A stretch of DNA of 64,000 bases from Emiliania huxleyi CCMP1516 (GCF_000372725.1 NW_005201792.1:1057440-1121439), one strand, 5' to 3'. Counted from the first letter of the stretch, positions 10,652 through 61,500 are shown. A program made the numbers and translations. Notes: generated by a model not told the origin, from the sequence alone.

Positions 10652-12726
10652 CTAGTTACCCAGAGGCGTCTCGGACACGTTGAGGATGCGGACGGTCCAC
10701 TGCTTGAGCCCGTCGCCGTTGCGCATGGTGTGGACGACCACCACCGCGTCGCCGTTCGCGAAGATCCCCTTTGCGATGCCCGCCTTGAAGCCCGCCTTGA
10801 CGTGCCTGCCCTCGCCGCGCTTCTCCTGCGTGAGGATCGACAAGGTGTTGCACATGTACCCCTCGATCTGGTTGGCGATGCGGCTGTCGTTGCAGACGGC
10901 CATGATCTTGGCCTGCGGGTGGTACTTTGCGAGCAGCCGCGCGGTCTCGCCCGTCTCGGAGAGGACGATGATCGCCTTGGAGCCGATGTCGGTCGCCATC
11001 TTGACGGCAGACGAACACGCAGACTCGACCAGCGAGACGCGCTTCGCCCTCTTCGTCTTCTTCATCTGCTCGAAGATCTGGTCGTAGCCCGTCTCGTCCG
11101 ACTCGGCGAGGTTGGCCTCGGCCTGCTGGCAGGTGCGCGCCATGATGGCGACCGCGTCGCGCGGGAAGGCGCCGTTGGCCGTCTCGCCGGAGAGCATCAC
11201 GGCGTCGGTGCCGTCGAGCACCGCGTTCGCGACGTCCGAGCACTCGGCGCGCGTCGGGCGCGGGTTCGAGATCATCGACTCGAGCATCTGCGGCGAGGCG
11301 GAGGGGAAGGCGGCGCGTGGAGGGCGCGGCGAGGGCGAGGGCGCGGGGCGAGGGCGCGGGGCGAGCGGCACGGGGCGCGGGAGTGCGGTGGCGGCCGTGG
11401 GTAGCGGGCAGGCCGGCGAAGTTGGTGGCGGGGGGCGGGAGGGGTTTCGTGGTGTGCGGGCGCGCCGCCTGCGTCGCCACGACGCAGGGCTATATCTCGG
11501 CTACTCTCAGCTTCTTCGAGGCTCTGTCTCGCGTCACCTGCGTCGCCACGACGCAGGGCTTGCCCGCCGCACGGCACTTAGCAATCATCATCTTTTGCTC
11601 GCGGAAGACCTTCTCGGGCGGGATCTCCATGCCGAGGTCGCCGCGCGCGACCATGACGCCGTCCGTGGCGGCGAGGATCTCGTCGAACTTGTCGAGCCCC
11701 TCCTGGTTCTCAATCTTTGCAATCACCTGCGGGCAGGGGCACGAGTGAGATCGCTGACGCGGCGCGGTGCGGAGTGCGGGCAGGTGGGCGGTCGGCGCGG
11801 TGCGGAGCGGCGGGGTGGTCGGAGGGTGGTCGGAGGGTGGGGTCTGTTGCCTTGATGGCGGAGCCGTCGCCGTGCTTGGACTCCTTGAGCGTCTTTTTGA
11901 TGAAGTGGATGTCCTCCGCCGACTGGACAAAGGAGGCGGCGATGAAGTCGACCTTGTTCGGCACGCCAAAGTTCTGCAGGTCGTCGATGTCCTTGGGCTG
12001 CAGCACGGGCAGGTCCACCTTGACGTTGGGCAGGTTCATGTTCTTGCGCTCGCCGATCGACTGGTTGTTCTCGACGCGGCAGATGACGGAGGCGGCCTTG
12101 CACTCCTTGACGGTGAGCACGAGCGAGCCGTCGGCGATGAGGATGGTGGAGCCCTTCTTGACCGAGGTGGGCAGCTTGTCGTACGTGCACGCGAACTTGG
12201 TCTCGTCGCCGAGGAAGGAGTAGTCGGTCGTCAGCTCGAGGTCCTGGCCCGCCTTGAGGTGGATCTTCTTATTGCACGACTCCTTGAAGAAGCCGGTCCG
12301 GATCTCGGGACCCTTGGTATCGAGGAGGATGGCGACGTTCTTGTCGGGCCGCTTGGCCGCCGCCTCGCGCACGCGCTTGAGGCACGCGCCGTGGCCCTCG
12401 TGATCGCCATGCGAAAAGTTGAAGCGCGCAGTGTTGAGCCCCGCGTCGATGAGGTCGACGAGCGTGTCGACGTCCCAGCACTGTGCGGCGCGGGCAGAGG
12501 CTCAGCGGCGGTGGCACTGTGCACGCCGGGCGCGCGCTGTGAGAGCATGGCTACACACACTACACATATGCGGGCGCGCACCGCCGGGCCCATCGTGCAA
12601 AAGATCTTGGTCTTCTTCTCCTGCACCGCGGCAGAGGCGGTGAGGCGGGTGGTCGGACGGGGCCACCGGGTGGCGATTGGGGGCGATTCGCAGCGCGGGC
12701 GCCGGTTGCGAACTCACCGCGGACAT
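10652..12726 (-). CDS. PK: Pyruvate kinase (exons 12726-12718, 12620-12582, 12480-11851, 11726-11538, 11287-10652)
   Basis: [91 protein letters not shown]. All splice junctions restore frame; one GC donor at 11850. Confidence 0.97.
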
Positions 12727-23314: not shown

Positions 23315-25579
23315 TCACGACCCTCCGACCTCGCTGCCGGCCGCCGGCGCGCACCCGTGCTCGTCCGCGTCGTACTCCTTGCGGCCGACGTTGTGCGGCT
23401 TGACGCTCGACAGCCTACAGCAGCCAGCCACCGCGTGAGGCGCCCCACGCCGCGCAGAGACAGGCACTCTGCAGCACGGGAGCCTGTTCGGGTCCGGCTG
23501 GCCGGGCGGCGCGCCCTGGGTGGCGGCGAGGTCGGCGAGACTCGTCACCGGCGGGCGGCGGCGGGGCGCGGTGGAGCATGGCTCGCCTGCCGTGTGCATT
23601 AGCTCACGGTGTTAACACAGCGCACCGCAGCTGCATCGATGCGGGAGTGGGACCGCCTGTCTGCAGGAGTGGTGCCTGTCTGCAGGAGTGGTGCCTGTCT
23701 GTCCGCCCGTGAGTGCAGACCAGCGTGGAGCGCGTGCGCTCTCGAGCGGTGCAGCGCCGGTGCTTGTGGCCGGCTGTGTCTGTCAGCTCGCGCATCTAGA
23801 AGGAGGCGGACAGCAGAAGCCGCCCGTGCGAGGGAGGCAGTGCTCGCACACGAGGTGGAGCTTGTTGCAGTCGATGTTTCCGCAGTTGACGAAGGCCTGC
23901 GGGCGGGGGCGGGGGCGGGCGGATGCGGGTGCGGGCGGGTGCGGGTGCGGTGCGGGTGGGTCGCGGCCGGTGCGGCGGTCGGGTCGGGGCGGCGGCGGGC
24001 TGCGCTGCCTCGGTCGGGGCTCCGCAGTGGACGCACTGTCCGACCACCTCGGACGAGGCGCCCCCGAGCGGCACCTGCGAGGTGTCCAGGACGTGTCGAG
24101 GGGCGTGCACAGGGGGCGTGCACAGCGGCGTGCACAAGCGGCTGCATCTCGGCTGCACCCTGTTCCGGCGATGGAATCTCCCGGCTACACCTCGGCTGGA
24201 CTCGGCTTGTCTCTCGGCTGCACCGTGTTCCGGCGGTCGAAGACGAAGAGCGAGCCCTTCCAGCGGGGCGGCGCCTCCTCCGCCGCCGCGTGGGCGTTGC
24301 CGTAGTGCTGCACGCCGCCCTGCAGCTTGTACACCTTCTCGAAGCCCGCCGCGCGCAGCCGTGCGCCAAAGTACTCGCATCGGATCCCGCCCGTGCAGTA
24401 CATCATCACCTGCTCTTGTTCTCATCACTTGTGAGTCTCACCGTCGGTGTGGCGGTGGTCCCGCGCAGCCCCTCCCGCACCGGCGTCTCGGCGCGCTCCT
24501 CAGGGTCGGAGGGAAGGCCGTACGCCTGGAGGGCGGCGCAGAGGCGGCGCAGGTCAGCCGGAGGGCAAGCGACAGAGGGTCCCGAGTCGGAGAGGCGGCA
24601 GCGAGCTCGAGCAGCGTGCGCCTCCTCGTCCGACTGCGCGAAGGTGTCCGGCGACGGGCGCGCCGCGCCTGCCCGCCGAGGAGGAGGTGCAGCCGAGATG
24701 CAGCCGAGGTGCGGCCGAGGTGCGGCCGAGGTGCGGCCGAGGTGCGGCCGAGGTGCGGCCGAGGTGCGGCCGAGGTGCGGCCGAGGTGCGGCCGAGGTGC
24801 GGCCGAGGTGCGGCCGAGGTGCGGCCGCGCCGTCGAATCGTCCGACGTCCCACTCGTACCCGTTCCGCACGTCCAGCACGATGGGAGCACCGCCGCCTCC
24901 GCCCTCCTCTCCGCCGCCGTCTGCCTTAGCGAGCAGCTCCTCCCACTCGGCCGGGCTGACGTCCCTCCCGCGGTCCTAGTCAGAACCAGTGCTGTCACTC
25001 CCTCTCGTAGAGGGGACGGTGTGCACGGCTGACGTCCCTCCCTCGCTCCTGCAGGGACGCCACTCTGCCCGAGGCGCCGCCGCCGAGCAGCTCGCCGCTC
25101 GGCACGAGGCTGCGGTGCTTCACGCGCAGGCGAGGGAAGGCGAGCTCGTCGCACGGGTCCTCCTTGAAGAGGATGGGCTCGGGCGCGGCGCCCGGCCCGA
25201 GCTGGTCGTGGCAGTACGCGCGGTATTCGGCGCACTGCTCTGCGGCGCCCGAGACCTGCGCGTTGATGCCGTCTTCGCAGAGGTAGACGCGGCCAACCAT
25301 CCCTCGCTTTGTGAGGAAGGCGCGGTGCGACTCAACCGCCTCGTCCGGCTGGGCGATGGGCGAGATGGCGTAAAAGGCGAGCGCGCGGTACGGCAGCGTC
25401 GCGTCCAGCTTTGGGTTGATGGAGAGGACGGGAGCCGGGACGGGCACGGCCGCTCGGATGGCGGCTGCAGCCGTGACGAAGCGGAGACTGGCGCAGCCGG
25501 TGCCAGGCAGCCTTCGCGCGGCGCCAAACTGGCACGACAGCAGCAGAGCTAGCTGTCGCACAGGAGGACGCAGCAACAT
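23315..25579 (-). CDS. trhO: Rhodanese-domain tRNA uridine(34) hydroxylase, TrhO/UPF0176 family, probably organelle-targeted; many introns
   Basis: GRVYLCEDGINAQVSG, AFPRLRVK, VLDVRNGYEWDVGRFDGA, MYCTGGIRCE, VYKLQGGVQHY, WKGSLFVFDRR, C..CG.P, NCGNIDCNKLHLVCEHC...GFCC. Long N-terminal extension. Confidence 0.9.
24688..24826. repeat. 11-bp minisatellite (GCGGCCGAGGT)n inside a TrhO intron
   Basis: About 12 tandem copies. Confidence 0.95.
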
Positions 25580-36176: not shown

Positions 36177-39100
36177 TCAGCAAAACCGCGTTTGTGCCGC
36201 TCCAGCGAGGGCAATCGTGCGGCGCTGCGCAGCGCGCCAGAGCGATCGCCCTCTCGCGAGCTCTGCGCGCGTGCTCTTGCGCCGTGGCCTGCGCTCAAGG
36301 CAGAAGCAAGTGGTCAGCGATCGGCGGTTCAGGAAAGTGGAGCAAGGGCTGTGCTGGGGGCGAAGCGCCACCTTTGAGAGCTTCGCGCCCACCGAGCCCA
36401 GGGGCGCAGCCTCTGCCTCCGCCAGCCTGAGAGAGGACAGGCAGGGCAGGCGAGGGGGTTGGAGGCGGAGCGGGCCGGTGCGCCGCCACCGGGTGCCGCG
36501 CACCGCTGCAAGACGGGAGCCGTGGCGCTCAGCGAGAGCGAGAGCGAGAGCGAGAGCGACGCGGCGGACGCGGGGGACGCCGCCTGCGCGTCCGCCTCGA
36601 GCTGCGCCACGAGCGACGCCGCCTCCTCGCCCGCCACCAGAGGCGACGAGCTTCGCCAGAGGCCGTCGACGAGGAAGAGAGCGTTCTCGCCGCCCTCACA
36701 CGCGCCAACACACGCACCAGCACCGCCCGCCGCGGCGCCGCCCGGCGCGCCTCTCGCGCGGACGGCGGCGGAGAGAGGCGCGAGCGCGGCGGCGCGCATC
36801 GCGGATCGCGTCTCAGCGCGGCAGTGTGCGCCGAGCCAGCCGGCCAGCAGACAGGCGGCCTGGGGCTCTCCGCCGCTGCCCGCCGCCGCGAGCGCTGAGG
36901 CTGCGCCCGGCTGGCCGCCGTGCGAGTAGGAGAGAGCGGCCCGCGCGAGCGCGCCGCCGAGCAGGCCGGGCGGCACCGGGGCGGCGGCCAGCTCGAGGCG
37001 GGCGGAGAAGAGCGCGCGCTGCGCGGGCGAGGTGAGCTCGAAGCACGCCTCGAGCACGCTCACCGCAGGCCCTGCCTGTGCGGCCGCCAGTCTGCCGAGC
37101 GTCGCGCGGAGGAGCTCGGCGGCGAAGCTGCTGGCGGCCTGCTCAGCCTGCTGCGCGGGGCTGGCGGCAGACGGCCGCGGGCGGGCGGCGCAGATCCAGG
37201 CAGACTCCGCTTCCGCGACGGCCCCCTGGGCGCGCGCGTGGCTTCCCCCGCCGACTCGACCCTCCCCACTCCCCTCGCCACCGGCGGGAAGAGGTGCGCG
37301 TGCCCAGCGAGAGGAGGAGGCGGCGGCGGCGGCAGCGTCCTCCGACCCAAAGGCGGGAGCGGCGTAGCGCGAAAAGTGGCGCGAGCAGCCGTACAGCGCA
37401 CCGCGCCGCCGCGGCGGCTGTGTCGGCGGTGGCGACGCGTTTGCGTCGATGCCGCCACAGACCGGGGAGCAAGCGGGGCAGCAGAGCGAGAGGAGGGCGA
37501 GGCGGGTCGCTGGCGGCGGCCCGTGCGGGTGCGGCGGCAGCGAGAGCAGCAGGGAGAGGACGAACGTGACGCGGCTCGGGTGGTGCTGGTACAGCGGCCG
37601 GAAAGTGATTAGTTAATTAGTAGTTAATTAGTAGTTAATTAGTAGTTGCCTGGTACAGCGGCCGGTAAGTGCGCAGCAAATCAGTCGCCAGCTGCAGCGC
37701 CTCACCGCCGCCTGCGTCACCTCCGCCGCCGCCCCTTGCGCCGATCAGCGCCGCCTCGATCGCCATGTCGACCGCCGGAAGCAGCCTCCTCGCCGCGCTC
37801 GAGTAGACACGCGGCCCCGCCCCCCGGCCCGGCAGCAGCGACGCGGCGGCCTGCGCGGCGTCGTCGTCGAGCGGCCTGATTAATTATCCGAAGTAAGTGT
37901 GCTGACAAGTCCTCAGTCGTGAGAGAGACATCGCGTCGAGCTGCCAGAGCGCGGCGGGTGCGTCGGCGTGGCGGAGCGGCTCCGGCGCGAGGGCTTGCGC
38001 GAGCCGCCCCATCGCGGCGCGCTGCTCCGTCGGCGGCGGCGGCGAGGGCGCCGGAAGCCTCGCAAAGGGAGCGACGAGACGCGCCACCGCCGGGGCCTCG
38101 AGCAGCAGCCGGCGCAAGGCTGCGGCGGCGGAACCCGCGCCGTCGGCCTCCTCGAGGCGGGCGGCGAGGATCGCGACAACGTGCTCCAGTCTCACCAGCT
38201 CAAGCGCCGGCCCAAGCGCGCACACCTCTGCGAGAGCATCGGCCCGGCCCGCCGCCCCGCCGGCGCCGCCGCGCAGCACAAAGCTCACGGCGACGTGGGC
38301 CGCCGCCGGGAGCTGTGCCGGCGGGAAGCCAGCGCCTCCGCCCAGCTGCCGCGCGCTCGCAACGGCAGCGGGGAGGAGGGTCGCACCCGGCGACTCTGCA
38401 AGCTCGGCGATCATCGCGCAGACCGCCGCCGCGTGCAGCAGCAGAGACGGCGGAGGAGCGGCGCCGCCGTCTGGGTCTGGCGGAGGCGGAGGCGGAGGGG
38501 CGGTCGCTCGGCCAAAGAGAAAGTCGCGGGCAAGCCGCAGCGCATCGGTGCCGCGGTCGGGCGCGGCAGCGTCCGCGGCGGCGGCGGCCACATCGACGAC
38601 CATCCGCAGCGCGCTGGTGACGGTGCGGCCGAGCTCTGCGGCCGGCTCCGCCTCGCTGCTGCCGGGCGGGTGGAGGGCGCGCAAGCGGCGCTCGGCGGCG
38701 AGGAGGAGGAGGGCGAGCGGCTCGAGCGCGACGGCGGCGGCGACGTTCGCCGCGCGCGCCGCCGGCGGCGCGTTCGAGTCCTGCGCCGCCTTTGCTGCGG
38801 GGATGATGGGGCGGAGGAGCGCGGCGAGGCACTGGGGCGACGCTGCTGCGGCGGCGTGCGTGGAGAGGAGATCTTCGGCGGCGCCGTGCGCGGCGGGGCA
38901 GCGGCTGCGGGAGAGGGAGGCCGCCGCCAGCTTGAGGAGAAGCTGGCTGTCTCGCTCGGTGCCTAATTAGTAGTTAATTAGTAGTTAATTAGTAGTTAAT
39001 TAGTAGTTAATTAGAAGCTGACTGTCTCGCTCGATGCCGCTGCGGCAGAGTAGCCAGCGGAGGCGGTACGCGAGCAAGTCGAACAGGGCCGCCTACAGTC

Positions 39101-42100
39101 GGCCGACGGCGGCGGCTCGCAGGACGGGAGACGTACCGAGCCGCCTCGCGGGGGAGGCTCGCACCAGCGCGTGCGACGTCACCGACCCCGCGGCGGCCGC
39201 GGCGGCGGCAGAGCCCGAGGAGGCTGCGTCGGGCGGGCACAAGTCGTACACGCAAGACTTGCCGTGCGGCGAGCCCGAGCCGAGGGTCTGCGGCAGCGTG
39301 AGGACGAGCCGCGCGTACGACTCGAGCAGCGAGACGAGGGGCGAGCCGCCCTCGCCCGCAGAGAGCGGCGGGGCGGTGCTGTCTGGAGCGGCGGGCTTGA
39401 GCTCCTCCTTGATGGCCGCGGCGAGCGACGCCTCGAGGCGGCGGCGGCAGTAGACGTTGAGGTGCAAGAGCAGCGACAGAGGCAGTGGCCGCCCGCCCGC
39501 GCGCAGGCCGTGCAGCAGCAGGTCGACGAGCTGCTGCGTGGTGATGTGCGAGGCGAGGCACGCGCGGCGGACCATCGACGCGGACGCGACCAGCGCCTCC
39601 GCAGCCTCGACTGCTCGGCTCGACCCGGGCGGGCGGCGGGAAGAGCCTACTCTCTCACACAATGGCGGCGTCTGGAGGAGAAGGAGGGGGGAGGAGCCGG
39701 CGGCCGCCGCCGTCCGAGAGCCGTTTGCGGGGCTGTTCTCCATGCCGCTGCTGCCTCCCCCTCCCCGGGCGCGGCTGGCAGCTGAGCTCGACGCGGCGGC
39801 CTCGAAGAGCGGCGCGACGGCCTTGTGTGCGTCCTGGGTGCGGCGGGCGAGGAACGGGGTGCGGCGAGGGGAGGGGGCGGTCTCGCTGGAGCTACGGGTG
39901 CGTCAGCGAGGCCATCGTGGGGGCAAGGGGTCGCGTGCATCAGCCTGGGGGAGGTGCGAGAAGGTGCGCGAACACGTGTGCGGCCGGGAGCTGGCGAGGG
40001 AGGGGGCACGGTGCAAGCTAGGCGCGCAAGCCTTCAGCGCCCTGTCGCCTGACACCTCGCAAGCTGTCCACGCCGCCGCGTGCGCCTCGATCGCCGCGGC
40101 GGGAGCCGGGAAGCGAGTGAGCAGGCAGAGGAGCGCGGCGCCGCGTAGGGTGCTCTCAGACGCGGCGGACGGCCCTCCGACGGCGGGCAGCGGTGCCCAC
40201 AGGCCGGCGGAGCTGCTGGCTGCGCCGTCGCAGCCGAGACGCAAGGCAGCGGCGGGCAACAGCCGGGCCCCGCGCTCCGCGCCCCCAGTCATCTGCTTGT
40301 ACAACACCGCGGCGTGCGCCGCGACGAGCAGCAGACCGGGCCCCGCGTCCGCAGGCGGCGGCCACAGCCTCCACTCCCCGCCCTCGCCGCCCTCCCCGCC
40401 GACGCCCGCTCCGCCGGCAAGCGGCGCGAGGTTGGCAAGCAGCGCAGCCTCGCGCCGGCGCGCCTCGTGGAGCAGCAAGTGGGAGAGCGCCCCCTCGTGC
40501 ACCCCGCGGTGCGAGTACAGCAAGTCCAGCGACGCGGGCAGCACCGCCGCCCGGCTCGAGCCAAGCTCCGCCTCTGCCGCCGCAGCGTCGGCGGAAGCGC
40601 CTGCGGCGGCGCGCCCGAGCCCGCCGCCGCGAGCGGCTGGCTCCCGCTCTCTGCTGCTGCTCGACGCCCTGCCGTTGGCGACGCCGCAAGCACCGCTGGC
40701 CGCGACACTCGCGGTGCCAGCACCCGAGCCGTTGGCCGGGTCGGCGCTGGCCGGATGGGCGCTGGCTCCCGCCCCCTTGGAGGCCCTCTTGGAGGTCTCC
40801 TGGGTTTGCTTGGAGGTTTGCTTGGAGGTCTCCTTAGAGCGCTTCCGCTTCACGCCGAGACGCGGAGACGCCTCCGAGGCGGCGGCGGAGGGGGAGGGAG
40901 CGGCGGAGGGAGCGAAAGCGGCAGCTGCGACTACGCTCGCCGCCGCCACCCGCGCCGCGGTGTCGGCGGCGGAGGCAGCGTGCTGCGCTGTCGCCAGATG
41001 CGCTAGCTGCGCCGCGCACACCGCCGCCTCCCGCGCCTCCTCCTCGAGGGCTGCAGCGGCCGCCGTCGCCGGCGCACGCGATGCGGGGAGGGCGGGCGGA
41101 GGCTGCAGCCGCGGCGCGCGCCAGTGGGCGATCTCGGTGGCAGCCAGCTGCACCGCCGTCGCCCAGCCAGGCCCGTTCTGAGCCCTCACCGGCGGGAGGA
41201 GGAGCGCCTGGGAGGGAGGGGGGCAAGGGGCGGGGTGAGGCAGCTGGGAGGGAGGGGGGGCAAGGGGCGGGGTGAGGCAGCTGGGAGGGAGGGGGGCAAG
41301 GGGCGGGGTGAGGCAGCTGGGAGGGAGGGGGGGCAAGGGGAGGGAGGGGGGGCAAGGGGAGGGGTGAGGCAGCGTGGCGGGCAGCCGCAGCCCGCGACGC
41401 GGCCCGTGCATGTGCGCGAGTGTCGCGAAGACCCGTGTCTCGGAGAGAGCTTCCCGTGACTGAGGCGTCCAGTGGCTCTCTCTCGCTTCCCTCCCCGACC
41501 CATCTGGACAGCGCCATCTAGACAGCAGCAGCCTCTGCCGCAGGGAGAGGAGGACTCTCCCGCGCGGCGCAGCCACGGGCGGCGGCGCGTGGGAGGAGGA
41601 GCGCCATCCAGTGCAGCGCCCCCCGGCCGTCTCCGCCGCCCCAGCCCCAGCCCGCCGACGGCCGTGCCGCGGCCCCGACCAGCGTGTCGCTCAGCTGCCG
41701 GAGCGAGCCCTCGAGGCCAGCGATTGCACCGCCCGCCTCCCACTCCTCCGCGCTGTCGCCTCCGCCGCTGTGCAGCTGCGGCCGCTGCTGCAGCCTCGCC
41801 ACCACGCCGGCCCAGCGCAGATGCGGAGACGCGTCGCCCGTCGCGGAGGTGCCTCCTCCGCCTCCTCCGCCTCCGGCCGCCGCCACTGTCTCCTCTGCCG
41901 CCGCCTCTGCTGCCGCCGCCGCGAGAGCGGCTGCGAGGCTGCAGCGCACCGTGTAGTGCGAGCAGATCGTGGCGTGGCGAAGCCGAGCGTTCGCCTCTTG
42001 GCCAGGCCCACCAGCCGCACCCGCGATCCTCCGCTCGCACAGCCGCAGGGCGTCGCACAGCAGGCGGGCGCTCTCCCGCCTCAGCTGCTGTAAGCATGCG

Positions 42101-42393
42101 GAGGAGCGACCCGGCTGCAGCTGCTCCAGCTGGGTCTCGGGCGACTGCAGCACGAGCAGGACCACGCGCAGCGCGCCAAGCAGCCACGCGGGCGGCTCTG
42201 CCAGCGGGTCAGCCGTGACGGCCGCCGCTTCCGCACGCAACATGCAGAGCGCGTCATGCAGCGATTGCAGCGGCGTGCCGGCACTCGGTTGCGCCGCTTC
42301 AGAAGGGAGCACTTCGCGCGCCGCGCGACCCAAGGCACCTGGCCACGCGCGGAGCACACCGAAGGCGAGAGAGAGCGCCTCTCGCGCCTCCAT
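36177..42393 (-). CDS. MED23: Mediator complex subunit 23 (divergent, multi-exon; 3' end approximate)
   Basis: Motifs occur in MED23 order after splicing: PLPLSLLLHLNVYCRRRL (cf. LPMNLLDSLTVH), SLLESYARLVL (cf. ALVETYSRLL), DLLAYRL, PRVYSSAARRLLPAVDMAI (cf. PIYFGNVCLRFLPVFDIVI), LLRTYRPLYQHHPSRVTFV (cf. LYKFHDRPVTY / YHPLRFTFV). Comparisons are from memory. Confidence 0.72.
37607..37647. repeat. (TTAATTAGTAG)n array in MED23 intron 37586-37649
   Basis: About 3.5 copies. Confidence 0.9.
38963..39013. repeat. (TAATTAGTAGT)n array in MED23 intron 38963-39037
   Basis: About 4.5 copies of the same 11-mer as at 37.6 kb. Confidence 0.9.
41208..41372. repeat. Intronic minisatellite of about 37 bp in MED23
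   Basis: CTGGGAGGGAGGGGGGCAAGGGGCGGGGTGAGGCAG repeated about four times. Confidence 0.85.
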
Positions 42394-45385: not shown

Positions 45386-46360
45386 CTAGAGGAGGTGCGC
45401 AAAGTCGCCCTCGAACTCCTCGCGGTCGCGCTTGCGTGCCGCGCCGTTGGCCCCGTAGGAGCCGAGCCGGAGTTGGGCCCGCTCTAGCCAGCCGTACAGG
45501 AGGTGGCGGCAGCGCTTGTGGGCGAGCGCGGCGTCGATCGCGTCGTACCAGAGCTGCAGGGCGCGCATGCTCTCGGGCGGGAGGCGGACCACTACCGTCG
45601 TGACGGGAAAGGCGTGGAGGAACACGGCGGTTAGGGGCACCGTGACGCGGTCGAGGGAGGAGCAGCCGCGAAAAGCGTTCTGTCCGATGGAGATGAGGGC
45701 GGGGGAGAAGACGATGCGCTTGAGGGATCGGCAAGAGAGAAAGGCGTCGCTGCCGATGTGTCTCACGCCGGCGGGAAGGGCGATGTGAGTGAGGGAGGTG
45801 CAGCCCTCGAAGGCTCCCGGTCCGATCGTGCAAAGGGTGGCTGGAAGGGCCACAAACTGAAGGGAGCTGCAGGCGTAGAACGCCGCGTCGTTGAGGACGC
45901 CGAAACCTTCTCGCCGGGGCCGAAACCTTCTCGCCACGCACTGGAAGGCCCGGCCGAGTTCGCATTCGTGCGAGAAGGTGACTGGAAAGGGCCACCCGCA
46001 CTGGAACGCCCGGTCACCTTCGCCTTCGTGCGAGAAGGTGACGGAGGTGAGCGACCTGCACTGGAAGAACGCCCGGTCACCAACGGCCTGGATGGAGCGC
46101 GGGCAGACGACGGAAGTGAGGGAGTCGCAGTCGGCGAACGCGGCCGCCGGTATCGATGGCATGCCCTGTGGCAGGATTGCGCGACCGGAAATGACAGGGA
46201 CGAGTTGGATGCCTCTGCCGGGGATGGCGGGCCGGTCGCTTGCCACGGAGATCACTTCCCAGCTGCTGCCCGCGATTAACCGAGGCTGCGCGTACGTGTA
46301 GAGAGCTCCAGAGTGCTGCGCAGCAAAATATGCTTGCAGGAATCGAATGTCGTCACTCAT
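45386..46360 (-). CDS. BspA/LRR_5-type leucine-rich repeat protein, intronless
   Basis: Repeats such as LPATLCTIGPGAFEGCTSLTHIALPAGVRHIGSDAFLSCRSLKRI and ISIGQNAFRGCSSLDRVTVP match the TpLRR consensus. ATG at 46360. Confidence 0.85.
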   Translation of the reverse strand: MSDDIRFLQAYFAAQHSGALYTYAQPRLIAGSSWEVISVASDRPAIPGRGIQLVPVISGRAILPQGMPSIPAAAFADCDSLTSVVCPRSIQAVGDRAFFQCRSLTSVTFSHEGEGDRAFQCGWPFPVTFSHECELGRAFQCVARRFRPRREGFGVLNDAAFYACSSLQFVALPATLCTIGPGAFEGCTSLTHIALPAGVRHIGSDAFLSCRSLKRIVFSPALISIGQNAFRGCSSLDRVTVPLTAVFLHAFPVTTVVVRLPPESMRALQLWYDAIDAALAHKRCRHLLYGWLERAQLRLGSYGANGAARKRDREEFEGDFAHLL

Positions 46361-49669: not shown

Positions 49670-52600
49670 ATGCCGGCATACTGTGAGCTTCCCGAGAATC
49701 CATTCGAGCCGGCGCTGCGCCTCGTCGCCACGCACCCGCTCTCCTCGTTCTGCGAGACCAAGCAGCCTCCCAAGCAGCCACCACCGAGCGCAAAGCCGGC
49801 ACGCAGCGGCAAAGGCTCGGCAAAGGGCAAAGCGAAGAAGGAGGCGCAGCCGGCGGCGGTGCCAGCGCCCGCGGCGAAGGACGAGAGCAGCCCTCCCGCC
49901 GCCTCCCCCGGCCACGCGGAAAGCGGTCGCAGCTCGCCGCCGTGGCGCCGGCCGCAAGATAGTCCCGTCGACCGGCGTGAGGCAGAAAAGATGAAGGCGT
50001 ACATGAGACAGATCGAGGCGGCGGAGGCGGCGGAGCGGGAGCGCGCAAGGCGGCGGGCGCAACGCGAGGCGTCCGCCGCGGGCGACCCCTGTGCGTGCGG
50101 CCGCGCGCACGGCCGCAAGCTCTCGATGCGTCTCACATCGGGTGGGCGAGAGCATGAAGGCAGTCTCCTCCCCCATGGGGGACCTGTCGGTGACACGTCC
50201 GTGCCGCGCCCACAGGTGGACCGAAGTGTGAGGTCTGCTCTGGCGCGCGGCCGCTCCCTCCGCCGCCCGCGGTGCGCGACGCCCCCCTCTTCACGCCTTC
50301 GGAGGAGGAGTTTGAGGACCCTCTGGCCTACATCGCAAAGGCGCGCAGAGTAGCGCCTTGGCGCAGAGGTCAGCGACTCTTCTCGAGGAGCCGCTCGCCT
50401 ACATCGCAAAGAGACGTAGACGCGTCTTGCACGAGCGCAGCCGCCCTAGCCCTGACCCTGACCCTGACCCTGACCCTGACCCTGACCCTGACCCTGACCC
50501 TGACCCTGACCCTGACCCTGACCCTGACCCTGACCCTGACCCTGACCCCTGACCCCTGACCCCTGACCCCTGACCCCTGATCCCTGGCCCAAGGTCCAGC
50601 GCTCCTTTTACGAGTACGGTGCCGCGCACCGCGTAGATGCAGAAGCGGCAGCTCTGCGGGGCCCTCTCTGCAACCCCCCCCCCCCCCACACACACCCACT
50701 CCCTCCTCCCCCGCTGGCCCAGCACTCCGCTGACCACCCTGCGGCGTTGCACCTGCGGCGTTGCACCTTGCGGCGTTGTCTCTTCACGCACACCCGGAAA
50801 GGCGCTTTGCCGCGCCGCGGCTTGCACAGCACCCTCCCCCCCCTTCCCCGCCTCTGCAGGCATCTGCCGCATCCGCCCTCCGCCCAGCTGGTCCCCCCCT
50901 CACACCTTCCACCTCCGCCACGGACCCGACGCCGCAGAGCCGACAGCGCCCCGCCCAAAGCCGGAGCCACCCTCCCCTCCCCAACCGCCACCCGAGCCAC
51001 CCTCCTCCGACCACCCGCCCCACCCGCCCCACCCGCCCCACCCGCCCCACCCGCGGCCCGGCGCGCGATGGAGCGGCGCCGCCGGCAGCGCCGCCGCCAA
51101 CGGCGCCGCCGCCGCTGGCGCTGCCGCCGCTGGCGCTGCCGCCGCTGGCGCCGCCGCCGCCAGTCCCGTGGCTGGGACGGCTCCCCCGCCGGGTGCCCCG
51201 CCGCTGCAGGAGCAGAGCTCGCACGGCCGCGTGCTAACCCAACCCTAACCCTAACCCTGACCCTAACCCTTACCCTTACCCTTACCCTAACCGCTGCAGG
51301 AGCAGAGCTCGTATGGCCGCGTGCTGCCGCCGAGCGACGTCTCGTACAGCGCCATTGGCGAGGAGAGACGCAGCTCTCCGCCTGGCTGCAGAGAATGGGT
51401 CAGTTAGGGATTACACGCTAGTCGTAACGAAGTAGGAGACGCAGTTCTCCGCCCGGCTGCAGAGGATCGGCACGCGCGCCGAGGCTAGCGGCCACGCCGC
51501 CCCACGTCTCTTAATTAATGAATACACTAATGTCACTATTGATGAACAGGAGAGCGGCCACGCCGCCCCCTTCATCTGCACTTTCGTCTCCGCGTACGCC
51601 TCTGTCGCCCTCGGCGCGCTCAAGAAGATGGACGCCGAGCTTCGGTCCGAGGCCTTCCCGGGTCAGCCGGCGGAGGAGCCGCCGGCGGCGGAGGCGGCGG
51701 AGCGCTTCTTCTGGGAGCGGCTAGCTTCGGAGAGCGAGGCGCGTGTCTGGCGTCGACAGCGGCGCGCCGAGCCTGCTCGCCGTCAGCCCGAGATTTGCCG
51801 AGATCAGGCGCGCGTGCTGTACTGCTCGGACGTCGAGGGGACGGCCTTCCCGACCGGCGCACCTCGCACCGCCGCACCGGCCCTCCTCTCCCCACCACAG
51901 GCCCGCCCCTGTGCACTCTCCCCCGCACCCCCCCCCCCCCCCCGCACTCTCCCCGCCGCTTCTCACCGCGCCAGACCGCGCCAGGATGGGCGCCCGCCCC
52001 CTTGCTAGGAAGTGTCGTGGGAAGTGTCGAGGAAGTGTCTAGGATGTGTCTAGCCGGAGGAAGCGCCCCTTTGCGGTCAGGCGCGCGCGACGGCCCAACG
52101 GCGAGGGACGCCCGCTGGTCGCTGCAGCAGATCGCCAGCCACGACGCGTCGCTGCTGCGCTTCGTGCGGTACGACATCCCCGGCGTGAACACGCCGATGC
52201 TCTACTTCGGGATGCTCTTCGCGATGTTTTGCTGGCACGTCGAGGACAGCCACATGTACTCGATCTCGTACCTGCACGAGGGCGCGCCACACAGACTGTG
52301 GCACGGCTTCATTGCTACTCCACTCATTAGTTCGTGTGAACTAACTAGGGGCGCCAAAGACGTGGTGCGGCGTCTCGCCGCGCCAGGCCTAATTAATTAA
52401 CACGTACCTAATTAGTCCTGGCCTAATTAATCAACCAGGTACGGCGTCTCGCCGCGCCAGGCCGCCGCCTTCGAGTCCGTCTTCGCCGACGCGGCTTTCC
52501 CGCGCGACGTTGCCGCCGACCCGCTGCTGCTGCAGAAGAAGGCGTCCATGATCCCGCCGCACATGCTCACCAGCCGCGGGGTCGCCGTCTGCCGCGCCGT

Positions 52601-54281
52601 GCAGCAGCCGGGTGAGTTCGTCGTCACGCTGCCGCAGGCCCAGACACTTCCTAGACACTTCCTAGACACTTCCTAGACACTTCCGAGACACTTCCGAGAC
52701 ACTGCCGAGACACTGCCGAGACACAGCGCGAGTTGTCGTCACGTTGCCGCCACGCCACGGAACGCACAGCGCAGTTTCACGTTGAGCAGCGGCGAGTGGC
52801 TCCGCCCCAGGCCTACGTACTGACACGAGACATTCTCTTGTCTGACCGCCTACCACGCTGGCACGAGATGGCATTCTTCACACGCTCGCCTGGCCGCAGG
52901 CCTACCACGCCGGCTTCTCGCTCGGCTTCAACGCCGCCGAGGCGGTCAACTTCATGCTCGCCGATTGGCTGCCGTACGCACTCTCCGCCTCGGAGGCGTA
53001 CCGCACGCTGGGCAAGGAGAGAGCGCACCCTCGCCCCGCGCACCCTCCCCTCCCCTCCCCTACCCGCCCTCCTCTCCTACCCGCCCTCCTCTCCCTCGGC
53101 GACCCTCTGCGACCTTCGGCGAACCTCGGCGAACCCTCGGCGACCCTCAGGAGCCGGCGATCGACTTGGAGCACCTCCTCCTCGACGCCGCGGAAGCTCG
53201 CCACTCCGCGGAGGCGGCGGTGCGGCTCAAGGCAGCGACACTTCCGAGAGACTTCCGAGACACTACCTAGACAGGCGGCGCTGCGGCTCAGGGCAGCGAG
53301 CGCCGGGAGGACCCGAGATGGGCCGAGATGGGTTCGAGACTTGCGCCCTCTGCGCGGAGGGAGGGCTGCGCGCAGGAGGCTCGAGGCTCAAGGCGGCGTG
53401 GCGCTGGTTCCGTGAGTCCCCTCCCCCCCCCTTCCCTCGCCGCCAGGTGCTCGTCGACGAAGAGATTCGCGCGCGCGCTTCCGTGCGCTCGAGAGGCGTG
53501 CCCGAGGTGCAGCCGCACGAGCGCGTCTCGCCCCGCCGGTCGACGCACCGTCGTCCCGGCGCCAGTCGTTGCCTGTCGTGCCGGTAGGTTCGGATGCACG
53601 AGTCCGACCGCGCCGTCAACGTCGGGCGCGGGCCGGCTTGCCTCCGGTGCGGCCACACCTGCCACTTCTCCTTCGTCCAGATCGGGACGGACCGCTCGCG
53701 CGGCGGCGAGAAGAAGGGGCGCGGCGGCCGCCAGCTCGCCTGCCTCCGCCACTTCGAGGAGCTGCCCGAGGGGCGGCCACGCCTATCTTCTCGATTTCGG
53801 CCCTTCACTGGTGAGTTCTGGTTCATGACTTAGGAGCTGCCCGCCGAGGGGCGTCACCTCTTTGTGCGGCACGAGGACGAGGTGCTGCGCGGCATCGTCG
53901 CGCGCTCCGCCGACGCCAAGCCGGCGAGCAGGCCCGACCGCGCGTAGATGCTCCTAGACGTGTTCCTAGACCTCTCCCTAGACCTCTCCCTAGACCTCTC
54001 CCTAGACCTCTCTCCAGACACGCCCCAGATGCCAGGTCCACCGCTCTCTCAGATGCCGCGCCTGGCTCCGTCCCCTCTTGACGCGTGTTGCGCCACTTGC
54101 GTCCTCGCCGCCTCACCCGCCCCCCCCCCCCTCCTCCCCTCCACCCCTCCCCTCGACGCGCAGGCCGATGCTCGACCCGCCCGCAAAGCCGGGGCCGTTG
54201 CCGCAGGCGATGCAGCGCGCCATCGCCGAGCTTGACGCGCAGCACAAGCTCAAGCGGCAGAGGCGCTCCAAGCCTAGCTGA
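49670..54281 (+). CDS. JmjN/JmjC histone lysine demethylase (KDM5/JARID-like) with C5HC2-like Zn finger; many introns
   Basis: JmjN: APLFTPSEEEFEDPLAYIAK|VQRSFYEY|GICRIRPP. JmjC: IPGVNTPMLYFGMLFAMFCWHVEDSHMYSISYLHEG|APKTW|YGV...VQQPGEFVVTLPQ|AYHAGFSLGFNAAEAVNF (Fe ligands H-x-E...H). Zn finger: CLRCGHTCHFS...ACLRH. Confidence 0.9.
50446..50585. repeat. Telomere-like (CCCTGA)n array in a JmjC-gene intron
   Basis: About 21 CCCTGA/CCCCTGA units. Confidence 0.95.
51236..51290. repeat. Telomeric (CCCTAA/CCCTGA/CCCTTA)n tract flanked by 35-bp direct repeats
   Basis: Tract lies between 51201-51235 and 51291-51325 (CCGCTGCAGGAGCAGAGCTCG.A.GGCCGCGTGCT). Confidence 0.95.
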
Positions 54282-55053
54282 CGGGCCGCGGCTGTCGGGC
54301 TTGGCGCGGTAGGTGCGATGGAGCGAGGTAGGGGTGCGAGGTAGGGGGCTCCGGGCGTCTGGGCGTCTGGGGTGTGGGACTGGGCGCGGCCACAGCTGTG
54401 CTGTTGCAGAGGGCGCGCATCATGCGCTAGTACGCCAGGGAACCAGCATGCTGGTGGACGAGCTCCTGGCGCGGGTCAGTGGAGATAGCCCCACAAATCA
54501 GTGGAATTAGTTTTCAGACATGTTTTCAGAGGACAGAGCGAGAGGATTCGTCATTCGTCAACCGCCCCCGGAAACCGCGCGCGCGTGGGCCGTGGCGGCT
54601 GGAGCGAGCGAGCGCGGAGCGGCCGAGCGCGCGACCCCGCGACCGCGACGCGACCAACAACACCACACATAAAACGTCCGCGCGCATCTTACCATCTTAG
54701 GGATTTGCCAACAATATACCTACAATCTTAGGCGCAAATCGCACAGCCGATCGCACTTGGAGCACTTGGAGTGCAGTCGGCAGCCTCACATCCAGGGCCG
54801 GGGAGCTTAGAAGCGCACCCAGCGGGCCGGATGATCGGGATCGGGCTACGGGCTAGAGAGCCCTGACCCCTAGCTAGGGGGGGTGCGCATTCGCAGGGCA
54901 AGGGCCTTAAGGTAAACACGGATCGGTCTCCGACCTCTTTTTCTTGAAAGACGTAGAACCCACACGACAGCCGCAGCGCGGCGCCGTCTGCTCGGCGCGC
55001 AGGTCGGCGAAAGGAATTTGCTCGTGCTTTGCGGACGCAGTGCGCATCGCAGG

Positions 55054-58505: not shown

Positions 58506-61500
58506 ATGTCGCCCGACTACTTTGTGCGTGCCACGCGCAAGGGCGGGCTGCCGCTGTCAGTGGAGAAGCGGCGCTATGGCAAACCAGTCACGATCCTCGA
58601 AAACTGTGGTGGCGACGTGCCAGGGCTGCTCGCTGCGATCAAGGCTGCTCTAGGGACGGGAGGCACACTGCACGGCGGCGGCCTTGAGATCCAGGGCAGC
58701 CTGATCGAGCAGCTCAGTGCGTGGCTCCTTCGTGCCGGCATCGTGCGTGGCCTCGCAAAGCCCGCACGGCCGCACGAGAGCGAGGAGGATGCGGCCGCTG
58801 CGGACGCCGCCGTGGCCGCCGCACGGCCGCCGAGGGATCGGCCACGCTGGAGCGCGGAGCGTGTGGCGGCCGCCACTCGAGCGGCAACAACGGGCAGCAG
58901 CTCTCTCGCAGAGGCGTCGGGTGCGCGCAGCCCTTACGACGCGTTTTGCGCGCTCTGGCGTGGCTGGCCGTACTGGGACCAGGTGCAACCCGAGAGCCTC
59001 CACTCCCAAGCCGTCGCAACGGCTGCTGCTAGCGCCCTCGCCGCGCTCCGTCCAGACAGCTGTCGCTTGCCCCGCCGCCGTCCCGTCCCGGCCCCGGCCC
59101 CTCTGCCTGGCTGCTGGATCACGCCTTCGCGCCCCTGCAGGACTGGTCCCGGCTGCCGGAGGTGTGGAGCCGGGCTCGCGAGGAGGGGGGCCCCGCCCTG
59201 TCCCTCGAGGCCAGCTCTCTCGGGCAAGCAGGTGGCGTGAGAGTCTCTCTCCTGCTCCGGCGGGCGGGCGGCGGTGAGGAGGGGTGCGGGCTGGGTAGGT
59301 GCGGAGAGACCTGCGGTGCTGCAGACGGCAGAGGAGCTGTCGGCGGCGCTGCGCTGCCTTGGGATGCTCGCAGAGCCGTGCGCCTCGAGGCGAGATGCAG
59401 CCGCGACGTAGCCGAGATGTAGCCGCGATGTAGCCGCGATGTAGCCGCGATGTAGCCGAGCCGTGTACCTCGAGGCGTGCCGCATTCGGCAACCTCGGCC
59501 CTCGCCGCCTCAGACGCCGCCTCCCCCCCCGCCGGCCCGCGACTTGCGCCCGGCTCCCCCTCTGCAGGCAGACGCGAGCCCAGAGGCTCGCGGCGGCGCG
59601 CGGCGGCGGCGCGGCGCGCGCCAGCGCGGCGGCGAGAGGAGGCGCAGCGAGAGGAGGCGCAGCGAGAGGAGGCGCGGCGGGCACGGGCAGCGAGGCGGGA
59701 GGAGGGCAGCGGCTTGACGTCGCCGCGGCGCGCCGCCTCGTCCAGGTCTCCTCCTCCGCCGCCGAGAGATACCGTGCACGAGACAGCCGCACCCACCGAT
59801 ACCTCCCTCGGCTGTACCTCGGCTGTACCTCGGCTGTACCTCGGCTGTACCTCGGCTGTACCTCGGCTACATCTCGGACCACCCACCCCACCGAGATAGG
59901 CTTCCCTCGGCGCACAAGCGCGCAGCGGCGCCGCGCGGGCGGGTGGCGCTGGCGCGTCGCCGTCGCCGCACCGCGCGCCGGTGAGAGCTCTCCTTGCGTC
60001 TGCCGTCGCCTCGCCGCCCTTGTGCTTCACTATTCGCACGCCTTCCCGCGCCCCTCTCCACGCGCCCCTCCTCCCCGCTCCCGCCCCGCCCCTCGCCGCT
60101 CCCTCTCACTGACGTCTGTGTCTGGCCAGGGCGGGAGGCAGGGCGGGAGGCCGCCTCCTCCTCCGCCTCCTGCAGGCTGGCGGCCCGTCCGGCGCACGGC
60201 GAGAGGGGTTGTGCCGGCGGTTGCGCCGGCGGTTATGCCGGCGGTTGCGCCGGCGGTTGTGCCGCCGCCGGCGCGCGGTCGCGGTCGCGGCGCGGTGTCG
60301 GCCGGGCGGGTTTCCCGCGGGGGGGGAGGCGGAGGCGGAGGCGGAGGCGGAGGGGGGCGCGGCAGACGGCCTCGGCTCGCGCTGGGCGACGGCGATGGCT
60401 GGTCGGGCGACGAGTGGTTGTCGGACGAGGGGTGGGGGGGGGAGGGGTGGGGGGTGGAGGGGTGGGGGGAGGAGGGCTGGGGGGAGGAAGGTCGCCACGC
60501 GACGAGGAGCGGCGCGAAGGCAACGCCCGCGGCGGCAACCGCAGCGGCGCTGGCGGAGGCGCAGGCGCAGGCGCAGGCGGAGGAGGAGGAGGAGGAGGCC
60601 GCACTCGACGCGGCGATCGCTCTCTCTCTGCGCGACGGCGCTCTCGAGGCGGCGGAGGGGGGTGGGCGGTGTTGTGCGCACGGCCCGGGGCGAGCGACGG
60701 GGCGCGGCGCCGCCCCTAGGCGATCGAGGCGAGGCTGGCGGTGCAGAGGCAGCAGTGGGAGAGAGAGGTGCGGAGCGGCGGTGCGGCTCTCCGCCCGGCG
60801 GGCGGTGGTGCGGGGCCGCTGCACAGGACGTGCGAGGAGCTGTGGGGCGATTTGAGCGAGGAGGAGGCGCGCTCGCCCGCAGAGAGGAGCAGGGAGGAGC
60901 AGGGAGGAGGGTGCCAGGCTACCGCGGGCCTGACGGGCTCGGAGCCATCTGCAGGCGTTCGCGCTGGCGATCCGTCTCTCTGCCGAGGAGGCTGCGGCGG
61001 CTGGGCGGCCGGTCGGAGGCCTCTACGGCGGAGGCGACGGCGGAGGGTGCGGCAGCGGCGATGGAGAGAGCGACGCGTTCTCTTCTCTCCCGTCGACCGA
61101 CGACGAGCTCGAGGAGCAGCTGCTGCGCGAGGAGCAGTTGCGGCGACAGGCGGCAGCAGAGCCGCCATCGCACCCGCCGCGGCCGCGGTGGGACGGGGAG
61201 CCGCCGCCGCCGCCTCTGGGCGCCGGGGCCGCCTCTGCAGCCTTCAACGGCGGGATGGGCGAGGAGGAGGCTCTGAGGTCCGAGATCTAGCCGAGAGCTC
61301 GCCGAGATCAAGTCGAGATCTGGCCGAGATCTAGTCGAGATCTGGCCGAGAGCTAGCCCGAAGCCGTCTAGGTCAGCCCGGAGGGGGTGTCCACTCTTCC
61401 TCTCCTGGCTCTCCTCTCCCGGCTCTCCTCTCTCAGCTCTCCTCTCTCAGCTCTCCTCCCGCGCAGGCTCGCCCTCGCGCTCAGCGGCGAGGAGGCGGCG

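Follow-up and report, generated by a model that had tools for sequence, protein, structure and literature searches.

It has long been debated where new introns, and the DNA that fills them, originate. Large-scale gain is at present ascribed to transposons, in surveys that would miss introns having only a tandem unit in common. In the accessible text of PMC4202315, the break-repair neointrons of Daphnia pulex carry a direct repeat that copies the adjacent exon edge, and the introns considered here have a like anatomy. The repeats measure 4-12 bp in Daphnia pulex (33 cases) versus 8-35 nt here. Moreover, unlike in Daphnia pulex, the filler can here be a tandem 11-mer common to several loci, and GC and GA donors occur beside GT (PMC4202315). 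Introners also insert new introns with shared sequence at unrelated loci, with splice sites partly provided by a duplication (accessible parts of PMC9860276 and PMC12130899). Their duplications are stated to be 3-9 bp long (PMC9860276), far shorter than here. The whole-length likeness, terminal inverted repeats and fixed length of introners are missing from the present introns, in which the tandem unit is all that is shared; judged by these sequence traits, they are not an introner. The available part of PMC12130899 gives three small E. huxleyi introner families (5, 6 and 45 copies), one of them with 10-bp terminal direct repeats; the 11-mer is absent from its 14 supplementary files, among which the family sequences may not be included. 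In the tandem genomic duplication model, both splice sites can come from a duplicated exon segment, as here, and the accessible text reports no excess of such repeats among Drosophila intron gains (PMC3296678). In contrast to that model, the duplicate here is too short by itself and 34-65 nt of foreign filler give the length; the filler often supplies the A of the acceptor AG.

Read and co-workers are said to have described, in Nature in 2013, 10-11-bp intron repeats of E. huxleyi with strand and position bias. The 11-nt-period intron repeats found here on the sense strand resemble them, and regarding such introns as carrying an exon-edge copy may explain them. To our knowledge, these repeats have been linked neither to exon-edge duplication nor to the birth or loss of introns. 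The E. huxleyi intron account in PMC4028052 makes no such link in its accessible part; it gives a GC-AG majority together with GA donors, and the introns studied here likewise use GC, GT and GA. A literature search covering few subscription journals or preprint supplements found nothing on exon-edge-copy introns in haptophytes, and the parts available of PMC2784329, PMC10290126, PMC12480563 and PMC13518057 do not describe exon-edge duplications. The present case is best read as a variant of intron gain through break repair, marked by repeats of unusual length, a filler that several loci have in common, permissive donors and a site at which alleles with and without the insert are seen.

The DNA analysed, called the window hereafter, is a 64,000-nt stretch of E. 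huxleyi CCMP1516, with 57-76% GC in 2-kb bins. Among named organisms, the haptophytes Haptolina, Isochrysis and Tisochrysis have the pyruvate kinases closest to that of the window, and named homologues of its MED23-like gene come from Prymnesium. The latter gene (36332-42393, minus strand) has about 1700 codons that are open after removal of seven intervening pieces, as indicated by RNA contig X11, the reading frame and the haptophyte homologues P0138, P0139 and P0141. Comparison with one 5409-nt RNA contig gives seven gaps, at 41532-41208, 40031-39834, 39721-39647, 39164-39093, 39037-38963, 37944-37876 and 37649-37586; the ends of the first five were set by hand, using the coordinates of the pieces and the letters remaining between them. 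The last three gaps are the focal elements of this study, and homologues are gapless at their junctions, except for a 3-residue gap just past the first junction in P0139. The name MED23, used in a preliminary description of this DNA, is tentative: the window's exons matched nothing in Pfam or PDB, and three of the four homologues scanned matched Pfam Med23 below its cut-off (E 0.0013-0.52, 8-17 bits versus 25). Homologue searches with the 338-358-aa exon were empty, as were PDB searches, and exact look-ups with ten further frames found none. All contigs compared were assembled ones: RNA X11 and X13 and DNA X1 and X8 for the MED23-like region, RNA X11 and DNA X1, X2 and X8 for the region of a JmjC gene (51300-54300). 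A tandem repeat lies at 41204-41368, within the 325-nt intron of the MED23-like gene, and X1 is short by 73 nt there.

The coordinates and sequences first given for the three focal elements all match. The 75-nt GC-AG intron (38963-39037, minus strand) begins with a 25-nt echo, that is a copy of the edge of the next exon, followed by an 11-mer array, an anatomy borne out by the sequence, by an RNA skip and by retention in DNA. The duplication spans 26 nt with 2 mismatches (intron copy 39013-39038, exon copy 38938-38963). The (AACTACTAATT)n array (38964-39014, minus strand) has 4.6 copies of a unit made of the palindrome TAATTA plus a 5-nt spacer, and fold analysis pairs neighbouring units as hairpins. 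A 15-mer core of the array has seven matches in the window, all inside the two arrays, and none in 100 shuffles. The RNA pieces leave 57 letters between them, as expected (54+3), and the RNA is identical to the exon copy. DNA contigs X1 and X8 enter the array from either side and metagenome contig L009 carries the whole intron, with 2 differences in 1244 nt; the intron is present in these three other DNA sets. The 69-nt GC-AG intron (37876-37944, minus strand) has an 11-nt echo (1 mismatch) and a non-repetitive filler; it is skipped in RNA contigs X11 and X13 and retained in DNA contigs X1 and X8. Because the 75-nt and 69-nt elements are gone from RNA contigs and kept in DNA contigs, they are spliceosomal introns. 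The proposal that introns or intron-shaped inserts here consist of a duplicated exon edge plus filler agrees with the duplications read at all three focal elements. The preliminary description had named related filler in two JmjC introns; the 11-mer itself is found in the 75-nt and 64-nt elements, but not in the 69-nt intron and the two JmjC introns named with them, where only TAATTA-type words occur.

The 64-nt GC..AG insert (37586-37649, minus strand) is the mirror case, with a 3.5-copy 11-mer array followed by a 22-nt copy of the previous exon's end (1 mismatch). The exon copy (37650-37671, minus strand) holds a Tyr codon, which homologues also carry, and the intron copy a Phe codon. DNA contigs X1 (2396 nt) and X8 (2395 nt) omit exactly 37586-37649, that is in 2/2 DNA runs, and RNA contigs X11 and X13 lack the insert likewise. 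Since both DNA runs omit it too, its absence from RNA is no proof of splicing; for the same reason, the insert is a presence/absence polymorphism, the only one of the three focal elements having alleles with and without it. The anatomy and coordinates of the mirror case hold, and we infer its splicing in the window's allele from the GC..AG ends, the stops in all three frames, the frame restored by removal and homologues that are collinear across the site. As the 22-nt repeat is shorter than a 31-letter word, such an omission would not be expected from assembly. The insert-free joints lie at 37585/37650 in X8 and X11, and at 37602/37667 in X1 and X13. By our own reading, which follows from the leftmost placement of the other joint in X13, X8 and X11 hold the exon-copy letter (Tyr) and X1 and X13 the intron-copy letter (Phe). 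Two insert-free alleles are seen, one for each repeat copy of the insert. Two histories would fit: the insert may have taken its repeat from the other allele in the course of repair; alternatively, an older insert may have mutated in its intronic copy and then been lost exactly, moving the change into the exon. The few differences in the flanks (1-3 per side) would be compatible with a recombinant haplotype across the site.

Echoes are also found in the JmjC gene (plus strand), where RNA verifies nine introns in 51300-54300 and the joined frame gives a clean JmjC protein. A 73-nt GA-AG intron (51363-51435; RNA joint) with a 29-nt echo is kept in DNA contigs X1, X2 and X8. The next one, a 66-nt GC-AG intron (51484-51549; RNA joint), has a 20-nt echo changed at +2 and +3 and is kept in X1 and X8, X2 being uncovered there. 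Further on, RNA and the echo score support a 67-nt GC-AG intron (52282-52348) with an 8-nt echo, separated by a 16-nt micro-exon from an RNA-supported 74-nt GT-AG intron (52365-52438) with a 25-nt echo and a fold z of -5.1. This micro-exon (52349-52364), flanked by two echo introns, belongs to the JmjC catalytic region. The filler of the 74-nt intron contains a 14-nt inverted copy (52409-52422) of the echo/filler junction (52382-52395). All 10 differences of its X2 allele fall in the filler, leaving the echo unchanged, and in a hand reading two short X2 stretches are reverse complements of nearby window stretches; the p of 0.015 for this confinement to the filler was set aside because the differences are probably few events. 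Finally, a 75-nt GA-AG intron (53759-53833; RNA, duplication scan) has a 12-nt exact duplication. GA-AG ends are found in three of the nine verified introns (51363-51435, 53017-53150 and 53759-53833). Most of the JmjC echo introns appear fixed, since X1 and X8 keep all five short ones and X2 keeps four, one being uncovered.

Similar scars lie inside older introns. In the JmjC gene, RNA places a 27-nt duplication of exon end plus donor, with an 11-nt-period filler (53212-53299, plus strand), within a 215-nt intron (53232-53446); an echo at 53214-53274, tried as a separate intron, was rejected because RNA puts it inside this longer one. In the pyruvate kinase gene, a 31-nt duplication of exon end plus donor with a 38-nt filler (11461-11560, minus strand; sequence and Pfam frame) is situated within a longer intron, and a third scar of this kind is that of the metagenome locus L018. 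Two further duplication-plus-filler scars of 24 nt each occur in one minus-strand gene, at 24954-25050, with a GA..AG register, and at 24147-24235, an exon-end copy inside an intron. This gene, without Pfam match, is presumably rhodanese-like, given its motifs.

DNA breaks are known to receive interstitial telomeric insertions. Widespread interstitial TTAGGG has been described in a coccolithophore (accessible part of PMC13518057). A candidate 90-nt GA..AG intron of the JmjC gene (51210-51299, plus strand), predicted from sequence alone, is alike, with a 35-nt duplication around telomere-like CCCTAA filler; the 11-mer itself is no telomere repeat. Within JmjC introns, the sense strand carries telomere-like tracts of CCCTGA and CCCTAA, at 50447-50580 and at 51236-51290, the latter between the 35-nt repeats. 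In the JmjN region, 50314-50411 shows a 27-nt duplication at 71-nt spacing, for which several registers would be possible.

An echo score of at least 8 is reached by 7/15 RNA-verified introns of the two genes, versus 1/272 mismatched pairings. This count leaves out 53927-54164, the ends of which are mis-set, and the 64-nt insert, the splicing of which is unverified; the insert also scores at least 8, giving 8/16 when included. The duplications measure 8-35 nt and the fillers 34-65 nt, with spacing clustered at 50-100 nt. Over the whole window, 13 duplications score at least 15 at a spacing of 50-100 nt, versus 0-1 per shuffle (15 shuffles); at longer spacing, two are found at 101-151 nt and one at 152-202 nt. 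We rely on this strict count and not on the loose threshold, which gives 26 duplications versus 3-12 in shuffles, the 26 including LRR gene repeats at 45937-46081. Fillers vary by locus, from the 11-mer to telomere-like, CCGAGACACTT-like and unique AT-rich sequences. The exon-edge echo, not the 11-mer, is the general feature of these introns.

The 11-mer nevertheless recurs outside the window. An exact 22-mer of the array matched metagenome contigs at 20 loci, eight of them with GC-rich flanks; since L009 is the window's 75-nt site and L011 and L013 are one site, six sites are new. All five new sites with both flanks are framed by duplications of 16-26 nt, with a spacing of 72-93 nt; including the window pair, duplications are 16-26 nt and spacing 64-93 nt. 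The duplications are 90-100% identical, and the filler is nearly all array up to their edges. The sixth new site, L019, begins at a contig end, and a second array there lies between 23-nt repeats; its array-bearing start is joined to a bacterial-like gene in a possibly chimeric contig. The other 12 metagenome matches, with flanks of 30-54% GC and no duplication, were regarded as unrelated and left aside. Together with two viral matches, they make 14 further 22-mer matches, none of which is framed by a 16-26-nt duplication; the best duplication score among them is 8.

The array is on the sense strand at 5/5 sites where the strand can be set, namely the window pair (by RNA) and L008, L018 and L022 (by frame and codon score). 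Codon scores at L007 and L011/L013 are weak and favour the strand opposite the array, although the only exact GC..AG register of L007 is on the array strand. Altogether, an exact G(T/C)..AG register is found on the array strand at 5/7 sites, and at L011/L013 on neither strand. L011 differs from L013 by a 100-nt insert between 37-nt repeats, present only in L011. The exact GT..AG register of this insert is confined to the array strand, whereas the opposite strand seems to carry the main frame nearby. Thus, what the preliminary description led one to expect of the 11-mer was observed, that is recurrence at further loci, framed in every case by duplicated flanks if both flanks are seen (5/5 new sites), and a sense-strand bias. 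It had also put forward a common template or seed. Because the 11-mer recurs between duplicated flanks and is sense at 5/5 sites, a shared seed is likely. The carrier RNA or mobile element envisaged was not found in viral 22-mer searches or with Rfam on the window. As a source, a virus was rejected (one 22-mer gave two AT-rich matches without duplications, a second none), and so was an RNA family as carrier, the window being without Rfam match.

Starting from the anatomy, the splicing of the 75-nt and 69-nt introns, the presence/absence of the 64-nt insert, the recurrence of the 11-mer and the GA donors, all of which are observed, we consider it probable that the short echo introns arise in one step, through repair of staggered breaks accompanied by the writing of filler. 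A staggered DNA break would be filled in at both overhangs, producing an exon-edge duplication of about 10-35 nt, and 35-65 nt of filler would be written between the duplicates during the same repair. An error-prone repair polymerase may slip, fold back and copy in trans from other intron repeats; a polymerase that slips and copies templates would explain one hairpin-forming 11-mer at several loci. The accessible parts of earlier reports indicate that duplications arise at staggered breaks (PMC8355091) and that Pol theta extends from templates in cis and in trans (PMC4912351). Most genes would not withstand such an insert in their coding DNA, and the survivors would be inserts with a donor and an AG in register. 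Relaxed GT/GC/GA donors would make such inserts common: among 20000 simulated duplication-plus-11-mer inserts in the MED23-like coding sequence, the exactly removable share was 2.9% when donors had to be GT, 20.5% for GT/GC and 24.4% for GT/GC/GA, about 7-8-fold over GT alone, a simulation that scores register only and not splicing. Later changes at +2 to +4 would likely improve the donor, and the flanking repeats would also permit exact loss. It is the model that supplies the break itself, the polymerase, the source copied into the filler and the direction in which the polymorphism arose.

Scars inside older introns, where splice sites are unneeded, are as predicted for a general mutational process. 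Most echoes are at the 5' end of the intron, which may reflect selection for having AT-rich filler, instead of a GC-rich copy of the exon, beside the acceptor. It is likely that introns are still being gained or lost here via imprecise repair of DNA breaks. Against break repair as the origin, 8/15 verified introns have no clear echo, and most echo introns are fixed, a single element being polymorphic. It should also be noted that deletion between its repeats accounts for the 64-nt polymorphism no less well than gain does, and that plain end-joining alone leaves unexplained why eight sites carry an identical 11-mer and why the period is 11 nt. More tentatively, one might imagine a standing intron factory without transposon, in which break repair would copy 10-35 nt of exon and write filler from a few self-templating 11-nt seeds passed in trans between introns, and relaxed donors would allow many of the inserts to splice immediately. 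If so, it would account for much of the lineage's short introns together with their 10-11-nt repeats, and the 64-nt insert would be an event caught with its repeat copied from the other allele, or an exact loss that carried a mutation into the protein.

Other origins have to be weighed. Target-primed reverse transcription is unlikely, but is the best of them. Here, non-LTR machinery would nick the DNA, producing a long duplication, and a short or reiterated RNA, either the 3' repeat tail of the element or an intron already excised, would be copied, leaving tail-only inserts. Variable-length duplication around a simple-repeat insert is a signature of this route, and such an arrangement is found at the 11-mer sites. 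The route explains one motif at eight sites and also, if the template was an intron RNA, the sense bias. On the other hand, 0/7 sites with both flanks share unique sequence, as from an element body, beside the array, and Rfam found no match in the window. Moreover, fillers differ widely, and the fold-back at the junction points to DNA template switching.

Slightly less plausible still would be an origin in two steps, in which introns that at first held some other filler would have acquired their 11-mer arrays afterwards, through slippage or conversion from one intron to another. Variant units in tandem (L007, L008, L018), fillers that change fast between alleles and a repeat-unit number that varies in the 325-nt intron would fit such a history, but the filler is nearly all array up to the edges of duplications with few differences, and each allele compared either has the 64-nt insert whole or lacks it entirely.

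The explanation first given for these introns now appears improbable; in it, the duplication would owe its ability to splice, from the outset, to a dedicated multimer of branch points that derives from a common template. The arrays do offer YTRAY at -12 to -49 and end in or near AG, and the strand and register counts given above speak for this explanation. However, YTRAY is missing from the last 60 nt in 9/15 RNA-verified introns, three more having it only at -5 or -55, and RNA shows that JmjC echo introns with other fillers are spliced as well. Therefore, a branch-site array is not needed, and the idea that it causes spliceability is not supported; the array may help splicing without being required. 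In addition, the A-rich palindromic unit yields YTRAY and AG on both strands, and L007 and L011/L013 (weak codon scores leaning to the opposite strand, the latter without exact register) seem not to conform. The donors themselves have changed. Echo and exon copy differ at 7/27 positions at donor +2 to +4, versus 3/113 further in (nine introns; Fisher p 0.0004, an excess that the way of calling echo ends inflates); in two instances, the change gives rise to the GC donor itself. Hence, several introns were probably tuned after birth, and the description of such introns as ready to splice holds only in part. Last, it is very improbable that the 64-nt insert merely reflects a faulty assembly of the window, with a haplotype switch via a repeat: the insert is carried by 0/2 DNA runs and its repeat copies match two different insert-free alleles, but its ends are GC..AG, its removal brings the frame back exactly, its 75-nt twin is supported by three other DNA sets, and like architecture is seen in the independent assemblies L007, L008, L018 and L022, once with an identical GC-plus-array start.

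Coming back to repair of staggered breaks, the scars attributed to it are long enough to be read without an outgroup in 7/15 verified introns of two genes. Presence and absence alternate for at least one element, and one filler can be followed from locus to locus. Counting echoes over the whole genome, combined with population data, would measure intron gain without transposons as well as exact loss, and is feasible with existing assemblies. The same data would test whether relaxed GC/GA donors raise the rate of intron birth, as the register simulation suggests.

Other repeats of the window deserve mention. At 59373-59477, a 20-nt duplication encloses a filler of GCCGCGATGTA with an 11-nt period, with registers on both strands. 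Further intron repeats of 11-nt period (CCGAGACACTT, GAGGTGCGGCC, CCGAGATCTAG and similar) are found at 52640-52710, 24684-24827, 61280-61350 and 59800-59870. Summed contig depth, a rough hint of abundance, is thousands-fold over the CCGAGACACTT-type repeat (52640-52710) versus about 4-5-fold over the 11-mer bin, so that by this rough measure the former is far commoner than the 11-mer of the MED23-like gene. A dispersed intergenic repeat with GAAA runs and very deep coverage (4728-4780, 5170-5215, 34198-34250, 34897-34929 and 48077-48340) is probably a small mobile element.
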